Positions 1,832 to 1,898 are shown, counted from the stretch's first letter. The stretch: DNA of 2,077 nucleotides from Escherichia coli (GCF_003334405.1 NZ_QOWM01000039.1), one strand, 5' to 3'. Translations and numbers: made by a program. Notes: generated by a model not told the origin, from the letters alone.

Positions 1832-1898
1832 CGGGGGCGAGAAGCCCCCGATATTATAGCCAGCCCGTCTTTTGGGGCATCGAACCCAAAAAGACGGG
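1832..1898. other. Two tandem GC-rich hairpins in the intergenic region (1832-1850 and 1864-1898); possible terminator/attenuator or structured element, no T-tract
   Basis: Hairpin 1: cgggggc-gagaa-gcccccg (7-bp stem). Hairpin 2: cccgtcttttgggg (1864-1877), loop catcgaa, cccaaaaagacggg (1885-1898), about a 13-bp stem with one bulge. Neither is followed by a U-run on either strand, so they are not canonical intrinsic terminators. Confidence 0.3.

Follow-up and report, generated by a model that had tools for sequence, protein, structure and literature searches.

The stretch of DNA analysed here, 2,077 nucleotides from Escherichia coli (GCF_003334405.1, NZ_QOWM01000039.1; hereafter the window), corresponds, at 99.7% identity, to + strand positions 25553-27629 of the E. 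coli plasmid pDETEC36 (NZ_CP116128.1), a MOBP/MPF_T plasmid of 30.9 kb whose near relatives are typed as IncX4. Judged by this similarity, the window is IncX4-type resistance plasmid DNA. In the annotation of pDETEC36, a pir-like rep gene on the - strand is followed by an AT-rich iteron region and then by a run of + strand genes, namely a J-domain protein gene (J), a gene for a hypothetical protein of 180 aa (D), two small ORFs, more small ORFs and hicA-hicB, after which come taxA-taxC and the type IV secretion genes. The features of the window around the two hairpins considered here (HP1 and HP2) are the following:

1219-1247, + strand: sigma-70-type promoter of the J-D operon, TTGCAA-17-TATTAT, from a promoter scan and conserved in relatives
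1224-1245, + strand: palindrome ATACGAC..GTCGTAT overlapping the J-D promoter, seen in relatives too
1310-1825, + strand: J-domain protein gene (171 aa, N-terminal J domain, WP_001025395.1), from annotation and family search, with its stop codon at 1823-1825
1832-1850, + strand: HP1, arms 1832-1838 and 1844-1850 with 7 of 7 G-C pairs, loop GAGAA, from the fold and an inverted-repeat scan
1859-1864, + strand: GCCAGC adjoining HP2 at its 5' end (read as CTGGC on the - strand), shared by most HP2-bearing J-D loci
1864-1898, no strand assigned: HP2, arms 1864-1877 and 1885-1898, 13 of 14 positions complementary, loop CATCGAA (1878-1884), from the fold and an inverted-repeat scan
1899-1929, + strand: residual spacer with the Shine-Dalgarno sequence AAGGG (1919-1923), in which alignments with related loci show neither a third hairpin (HP3) nor a DnaA-box junction
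1930-2077, + strand: 5' part of the D gene (conserved protein of 180 aa), ATG at 1930, from annotation and comparison

The promoter, the palindrome and a hairpin in the 5'-UTR upstream of the J genes are kept in eight other loci and in a second copy on pDETEC36. Because the J-D operon has its own sigma-70 promoter, HP1 and HP2 lie inside a + strand polycistronic transcript; the operon also contains a small MqsA/XRE-like HTH gene two genes downstream of HP2. Family searches with the flanking proteins returned the J domain only, and D matches no known family.

The upstream part of the window shows several repeats of its own. The predicted start of the J-operon transcript (window 1253-1273) reads CATCGAAAGGGGAATGGCCCC and holds the heptamer CATCGAA, identical to the HP2 loop; it is followed by a covarying 5' hairpin, and related loci have ATCGAGA, ATCGAAA or CATAGAG at this place. 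A leader of about 410 nt (window 895-1300), which includes a G+C-rich structured part, the promoter TTGCAA-17-TATTAT, the operator palindrome and the 5'-UTR hairpin, is repeated at 90.7% identity at positions 28522-28935 of the pDETEC36 record (L001 10970-11383; loci used for comparison are given L numbers), where it precedes another small-gene operon. Each IncX4 or IncI2 plasmid has two to four copies of this leader, and a BLAST comparison with the leading region of the F plasmid showed no similarity. An ORF annotated as 'molecular chaperone DnaJ' (record 28488-28808) overlaps the second leader copy and may be a spurious annotation. Iteron-like direct repeats (CCATAAATCTGTCCC and CCATAAATTTGTCCC, window 1-20 and 167-185) are located in the AT-rich region by the rep gene and presumably belong to the vegetative origin. 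The stretch CATTCCGCTTCCTCGCTCACTAACTCGCTCCGCTCGGTCGTTCGACTGCGGCGAGCGGAG (window 240-320) holds a perfect 9-bp inverted repeat (CTCCGCTCG/CGAGCGGAG) and resembles the ColE1/pBR322 segment just downstream of the origin with a PriA-type primosome assembly site; this ColE1-like stretch may account for the 2641 plasmid matches of the whole window.

The initial annotation had placed two hairpins between the J-domain gene and the next ORF, and both the fold and the mapping of the arms bear this out. HP1 starts 6 nt past the J stop codon, and the HP2 stem has a single mismatch (G1874.A1888). On the + strand, positions 1820-1935 (116 nt) have a folding energy of -41.2 kcal/mol (z = -4.45), and for the - strand the value is -45.8 kcal/mol (z = -4.72), with 0 of 200 shuffles as good in either case; as RNA, the hairpins alone fold at -15.6 (HP1) and -20.3 kcal/mol (HP2). 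Both are near-unchanged in 767 plasmid records with a coverage of at least 80% of a 171-nt query. The observation that no T-tract follows either hairpin is essentially right, since the first 10 nt are ATATTATAGC 3' of HP1 and AACAGCAGCC 3' of HP2, aside from a permissive scan which alone calls HP1 terminator-like on the - strand, owing to TTCTGGTT. With no U-rich tract 3' of HP1 or HP2, we also agree that these are not canonical intrinsic terminators. The promoter scan detected no boxes in or around HP1 or HP2 on either strand and none conserved between HP1 and D. An Rfam search of the window at E <= 1 gave one chance match elsewhere and none at the hairpins, and ten related or look-alike loci gave zero matches at gathering thresholds.

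The J-D gene pair is conserved on IncX4, IncI2 and IncX1/X3 plasmids, on IncN-like or MOBC plasmids of 24-94 kb, and on plasmids of Arsenophonus, Erwinia, Tatumella, Pantoea, Morganella and Citrobacter, with D-protein identities down to about 50%. The region between the two genes comes in three grades. IncX1/X3, Citrobacter, Morganella and Pantoea loci have HP1 only. IncN-like loci, one IncI2 plasmid, Arsenophonus, Erwinia and Tatumella have HP1, HP2 and, in addition, HP3 (GCTGCAttgGCTGGCtycGCCAGCGCAGC), which is followed by the D-gene Shine-Dalgarno sequence at a distance that is always 8-10 nt in J-D loci. The IncX4/IncI2 clade of the window has HP1 and HP2 only, the approximately 25 nt comprising HP3 being gone; within this clade, IncI2 plasmids in the size class of pHNSHP45 carry the J-D hairpin region at 98% identity. 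The homology between IncX4 and IncX1/X3 covers query positions 1-69 and ends a few bases past HP1; therefore, HP1 travels with J, and HP2/HP3 represent a separate insertion/deletion unit. The notion that the hairpins form one element can thus not be upheld: there are two separable modules, and HP2 is also found elsewhere without a J gene. No curated Rfam family covers HP2 or HP3, and we found no description of them in the literature.

HP1 begins 6-9 nt past the J stop codon in all 13 lineages examined. Its GGGGGC/GCCCCC stem is near-invariant (in a single lineage the closing pair is U.G on the + strand), and the loops GCAA, GTAA, GAAA, AAAA, AGAA, GAGAA or AAT are mostly of the GNRA type on the sense strand. 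A run of at least five T in the ten bases 3' of HP1 is absent from all 13 J-D lineages. Compared with a canonical intrinsic terminator, HP1 has the G/C-rich hairpin directly after a gene and lacks the U-rich tract of 7-8 nt. Other strong intergenic hairpins of the plasmid are often without T-runs as well (after taxC, trbM and hns), canonical terminators are present elsewhere on it, e.g. after the eex gene, and in contexts other than J-D loci the HP1-like hairpins ahead of HP2 are true terminators with T7 runs.

A hairpin of comparable build has been described as a noncanonical intrinsic terminator between hicA and hicB of the IncI2 plasmid pHNSHP45, where a G/C hairpin followed by only UUU was shown experimentally to cut the downstream mRNA about 10-fold, giving two co-transcribed genes an unequal ratio, and also to lower HicB translation (PMC11878559). 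Like HP1, this hairpin is intercistronic and G/C-rich, has almost no U-tract and is located just upstream of the ribosome-binding site of the next gene. It differs in sequence and operon, in its UUU tract (HP1 is followed by AUAUUAUAG, with only UU dinucleotides) and in having no HP2 counterpart beside it, and its effect was tested experimentally, that of HP1 being predicted from the sequence. REP elements in the malEFG operon are intercistronic mRNA-stabilising stem-loops; they resemble HP1 in being strong hairpins that directly follow a cistron, lack a U-tract and would protect the segment upstream of them. REP/BIME elements are, however, dispersed repeats with many copies per replicon, whereas HP1 and HP2 are each single-copy in the 30.9-kb plasmid. 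Most likely, HP1 would thus be a terminator-type mRNA hairpin without a U-tract, acting as a weak terminator and as a 3'-end protector of the J message, and among the options listed in the initial annotation an RNA stability or weak-termination element fits HP1.

In the opposite direction, an antisense (- strand) small RNA could run through the complement of HP2 and end at the complement of HP1, which is followed by UUCUGGUU. The terminator-like call of the permissive scan and the slightly better fold of the - strand agree with such an RNA, but a promoter scan of positions 1900-2077 finds no - strand promoter, the T-richness past the HP1 complement is not kept in relatives (the Arsenophonus sequence is GTTCCCGTTA), and there is no Rfam family. 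We consider this explanation very improbable.

The HP2 stem shows clear covariation. Across eight distinct homologues 97.3% of the cells of the 14-bp helix are paired, 7 of the 14 pairs have changed on both sides, and this covariation was reached in 0 of 500 shuffles and is abolished when the partner strand is shifted as a control. Together with the retention of the HP1 stem in 13 of 13 lineages, this answers in the affirmative whether homologous loci conserve the pairing, a comparison that had been proposed along with the two hairpins. The lower stem exists in the variants CCCGTC, CAATCC, CAATTC, CCCTGC and TTTTTC, and only 2 of 111 stem cells are G.U. The top of the stem (TTTT-C-GGG / CCC-G-AAAA) and the ATYGA core of the loop keep their sequence; both top and loop stay the same where D proteins are only 50-57% identical and the spacer between HP1 and HP2 has wholly diverged. 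The adjoining GCCAGC is present as GCCAGC or CCAGC in 9 of 11 aligned variants, the exceptions being L052 (GCCTGC) and L051 (GCCAGG).

One position of the HP2 stem, C-G in most relatives, is G.A in the window and A.C in the IncI2 variant L003. This mismatch and the loss of HP3 in the IncX4/IncI2 clade suggest some relaxation of HP2 in the clade of the window. HP2 might even be a non-functional relic of a larger array, kept by palindrome-templated repair and hitch-hiking, with HP1 as the only active hairpin; template-switch repair can preserve perfect palindromes in the absence of selection, and related plasmids do without HP2. The persistence of an identical top and loop next to diverged sequence, the repeated compensatory changes in the lower stem and the invariance of HP2 in hundreds of IncX4/IncI2 records argue against a relic, which we regard as unlikely.

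The conservation of the inner half-sites as sequence would also be in line with a duplex operator (TTTTCGGG-N7-CCCGAAAA) for a dimeric regulator, such as the small MqsA/XRE-like HTH protein encoded in the operon two genes downstream. An operator, however, has no need for the covarying outer 6 bp or for a conserved asymmetric spacer, L061 and L062 have exchanged the stem top and kept the loop, and HP2 is not located at a promoter, the operon promoter having a different palindrome. A duplex operator is therefore hardly credible, and relic, antisense RNA and operator all belong to the less likely explanations. A tRNA-like minihelix with a T-loop on the - strand (GGG-TTCGATG-CCC) was considered as well. 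It fits the TTCRA consensus in the window, but we rejected it because the loop does not persist as a T-loop in homologues, which have TTCTATA, TTCAATA or TCAAT, and because ARAGORN detected no tRNA-like gene in the window.

A metagenome scan for the HP2 top yielded about nine unrelated long perfect hairpins with an identical 19-nt top (TTT-N-GGGCATCGAACCC-N-AAA; loci L019/L024/L025/L026/L031/L036/L038, L022, L023, L027/L046, L030, L035, L042/L045 and L047/L049). One of these, from gut Bacteroidales-like contigs, belongs to a dispersed repeat made of two hairpins, the partner having the near-reverse loop CTCGATG, and others adjoin RAYT-like or TnpB-like genes. Three further families of matches are coding sequences (rpsB in L017/L044 and in L039/L043, and L033). 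The look-alikes share no context with each other and belong to no Rfam family, and by a rough estimate a few such matches would arise by chance among all hairpins; we rejected them as relatives of HP2, and the recurrence of GGG-YWTCGAWR-CCC loops is probably a coincidence.

True HP2-type hairpins do occur outside J-D loci, in other contexts on plasmids of Proteus, Arsenophonus and Actinobacillus. In P. mirabilis IncX8 plasmids (L055), in plasmids of P. terrae and P. mirabilis (L056, L060) and in another P. mirabilis plasmid (L061), a branched structure of 128 nt lies between HP2 and HP3, and on the Arsenophonus plasmid L062 an HP2-type hairpin stands ahead of the same 128-nt junction. The corresponding feature is:

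L055, 733-938: DnaA-box array in Proteus, identified by alignment and also present in L056, L060, L061, L062 and L063

The full array consists, in this order, of a terminator, HP2 with its ATYGA loop, a three-way junction with a DnaA-box basal stem, and HP3. The basal stem of the junction is formed by NNGTTACCCACCG and CCGTGGATAACNN and includes the DnaA box TTATCCACG on the - strand, which matches TTATCCACA at 8 of 9 positions. An alignment of six versions of the junction comprises 66 predicted pairs, 28 of them with compensatory changes, and one internal stem exchanges an A-run for a T-run. The mismatch in the basal stem, C.A when read on the + strand, can pair as a T.G wobble on the - strand and is present in six of six versions. 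In the left-hand hairpin the ATYGA core is kept while the top of the stem changes between GGG/CCC, AGG/CCT, TTGGC/GCCAA and TTAGC/GCCAA, which points to recognition of the loop sequence. J-D loci read ...HP2-AAAC(A)CCGCCACGCTGCA... where Proteus reads ...HP2-CC[AAGTTAC...GATAACTT]AAACCGCCACGCTGCA..., i.e. the DnaA-box junction is missing precisely from the J-D versions; a DnaA box is absent from positions 1826-1929 of the window and was found only in the arrays of L055, L056 and L060-L063. HP3 is also found in Yersinia MOBF plasmids, at two to four places per record inside long G+C-rich non-coding leaders, and its outer stem has undergone a compensatory change there (GCTGC/GCAGC to GCGGC/GCCGC); in pYE854 (L058 3301-3346) the genes downstream of the leader with HP3 encode a cytosine methyltransferase and a DUF3560 protein.

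The position of HP2 relative to transcription units in these plasmids is informative. In L056, L060 and L064 the 5' arm of HP2 starts inside the T7 run of the canonical terminator of the upstream gene and should therefore not be in the upstream transcript there, and L061 has a terminator upstream of HP2 as well. As HP2 is found behind terminators elsewhere, we take the tandem of an HP1-like hairpin followed by HP2 to be the ancestral arrangement. In L055, no gene lies between HP2 and oriT.

These findings bear on the possibility that both hairpins act in the sense mRNA only, HP1 as a 3' stabiliser or leaky terminator and HP2 (with HP3, where present) as a processing or protein-binding element in the 5' leader of D. 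Both hairpins lie inside a sigma-70-driven operon, HP1 loops are of the GNRA type, and the hicA-hicB precedent lowered downstream translation, too (PMC11878559). The retention of HP2 and HP3 in junction-less J-D loci, with HP3 ending 8-10 nt ahead of the Shine-Dalgarno sequence of D, would equally fit an RNA role. In addition, G.U pairs which can form on the + strand only occur in HP3 of IncN-like loci (two), in HP2 of L003 (one) and in HP1 of L016 (one) and would mildly favour sense RNA. These counts are too small and too conflicting to choose a strand from wobble pairs, as the G.U pairs favour the + strand and the DnaA-box mismatch pairs only on the - strand. A role in mRNA alone is, however, difficult to reconcile with HP2 starting in a terminator T-run in L056, L060 and L064, where the upstream RNA should end earlier, with the lack of a following gene before oriT in L055, and with the J-D pairs of IncX1/X3, Citrobacter, Morganella and Pantoea, which have neither HP2 nor HP3. 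HP2 is moreover associated with a DNA-protein recognition element, the DnaA box, has few G.U pairs and matches no Rfam family. Overall, an exclusive function in mRNA is the main rival to our preferred explanation and seems somewhat less likely to us.

A more specific version, translational coupling or attenuation of the downstream ORF, had also been among the options of the initial annotation and finds no backing here: the D Shine-Dalgarno sequence (AAGGG, 1919-1923) is free in the centroid fold of the + strand and not sequestered, and IncX1/X3 relatives have the gene pair without HP2. An attenuator-like switch in which the GCCAGC flank of HP2 pairs with GCTGGC of HP3 is a paper possibility that we discarded, as L052 breaks the pairing without compensation.

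The sequence TATCCTG|C, a putative nick site that matches the MOBP nick-region consensus known from RP4, occupies 30747-30740 on the pDETEC36 - strand; it follows the oriT inverted repeat immediately on the 3' side and lies a short way upstream of taxA. In L055 it likewise precedes a taxA-like gene ('ddp1'), and the full array is located about 400-600 nt from it, on the leading side. With transfer proceeding 5' to 3', the - strand would be the transferred strand and the segment hicBA ... D, J ... ori would enter the recipient first; the transferred strand would consequently be the template for the + strand genes. It is a rule for leading regions that genes are oriented in such a way that the transferred strand serves as template (PMC11541004).

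Single-stranded DNA of this kind can carry priming signals. DnaA-box hairpins on SSB-coated single-stranded DNA load DnaB and primase in the established ABC primosome (PMC6127211), and the IncX prototype R6K is reported to carry ssi signals (PMC7690428). The ABC-primosome 'A site', as far as it is portrayed in the account of Masai et al. 1990 given in PMC6127211, is a single-stranded DNA hairpin with a DnaA box in its stem. The relatives of HP2 are similar in that they flank, on IncX-group plasmids, a hairpin junction with a DnaA-box basal stem (8 of 9 matches) that lies near oriT and on the transferred strand. They are dissimilar in that the window is without a DnaA box and HP2 is the neighbouring hairpin only, the likeness being one of description drawn from the sequence. 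The classical 'A site' came from R6K, and we know of no priming activity for HP2 alone. The DnaA-box array of the Morganellaceae plasmids is probably an ssi of the ABC-primosome type.

Two other single-stranded DNA signals were compared. The complementary-strand origin of phage G4 (NC_001420; three hairpins and a CTG start) also consists of strong hairpins in an intergenic region between two genes of the same sense, its stem-loop I shares the 10-mer GGCGAAAGCC with HP1 of the IncX1/X3 and pET49 loci, and in most J-D loci a CTG on the - strand adjoins HP2. Here, however, CTG is located between the hairpins and not after all three, so that the order of hairpins and CTG differs; there is no overall sequence similarity, and the HP1 loop of the window is GAGAA. 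The CTG start is absent in L052 and in the Proteus versions, and none is conserved outside J-D loci. We set a G4-type origin aside, the resemblance found being generic. Frpo/ssi single-stranded DNA promoters (PMC11541004, PMC12672017) share with the hairpins described here their place in the first-entering segment, structured non-coding DNA and the template-strand orientation, but the Frpo hairpins are about 300 nt long and reconstitute -35/-10 boxes, whereas HP1 and HP2 are short and without promoter boxes. Homology to Frpo was dismissed on these grounds and for lack of BLAST similarity to the F leading region.

Outside the window, a segment of 92 bp with the oriT inverted repeat and TATCCTG|C exists as a 100% identical inverted duplication (L001 6208-6299 and 13184-13275, corresponding to pDETEC36 record 23760-23851 and 30736-30827). 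The two inverted oriT copies flank a 6.9-kb segment with rep, ori, J-D and hicAB, the genes near each copy point towards that copy, and HP1 and HP2 are located about 100-150 bp from the midpoint between them. The duplicated IncX4 oriT is reminiscent of R6K, for which two oriTs have been reported.

Our preferred explanation, which we hold tentatively and with a probability of about 0.4, is that two modules of different nature lie side by side, HP1 being a J-linked mRNA hairpin and HP2 the remnant of a truncated ssi-type single-stranded DNA array. On the + strand mRNA, HP1 would form a G/C-clamped 3' hairpin of the GNRA type which, without a U-tract, would cause weak termination at most and would shield the upstream J message from 3' exonucleases, with the outcome that J would be more abundant than the downstream D. 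HP2 would be the left-hand hairpin of a modular plasmid hairpin array that becomes active when the DNA is single-stranded, either as the transferred strand after conjugative entry or as the lagging-strand template, and the single-stranded array would be an ssi-type signal helping to prime the complementary strand; 'another ssDNA structure', also among the options first listed, would thus describe HP2. In the IncX4/IncI2 lineage, where the junction and HP3 are absent and HP2 is mismatched, a truncated and possibly weakened version would be left in the J-D operon. We infer these functional steps, i.e. termination or stabilisation by HP1 and a priming role of HP2, from the observed structures, their conservation, covariation and modularity, the transfer strand and side, and the association with terminators and DnaA boxes. 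A more far-reaching proposal, to which we assign a low probability, is that HP2-type hairpins and HP3 (variable stem, ATYGA loop) constitute an undescribed, self-sufficient class of plasmid single-stranded DNA signals that are read through their loop by a host or plasmid protein, with or without a DnaA-box junction, and that in IncX4/IncI2 plasmids they would lie almost exactly midway between two inverted oriT copies so that either transferred strand presents the hairpin.

Colistin resistance through mcr-1 is carried mainly by IncX4 and IncI2 plasmids, and how the DNA that enters a recipient first is expressed and replicated is a current question. Either outcome for HP1 and HP2 would be incremental, as intercistronic hairpins poor in U-tracts and ssi-type hairpins are already known mechanisms, and the result for the window itself is modest; of greater interest are the related loci with their DnaA-box array close to oriT and, elsewhere on the plasmid, the inverted duplication of oriT. 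If HP1 is a leaky terminator, it would set the dose of the plasmid J-domain protein relative to that of its partner gene, comparable to toxin and antitoxin in hicA-hicB. Should HP2 and its relatives act in priming, they would add to the few ssi elements known, and DnaA-box hairpins would be tied to the oriT-proximal leading region of IncX-like plasmids.
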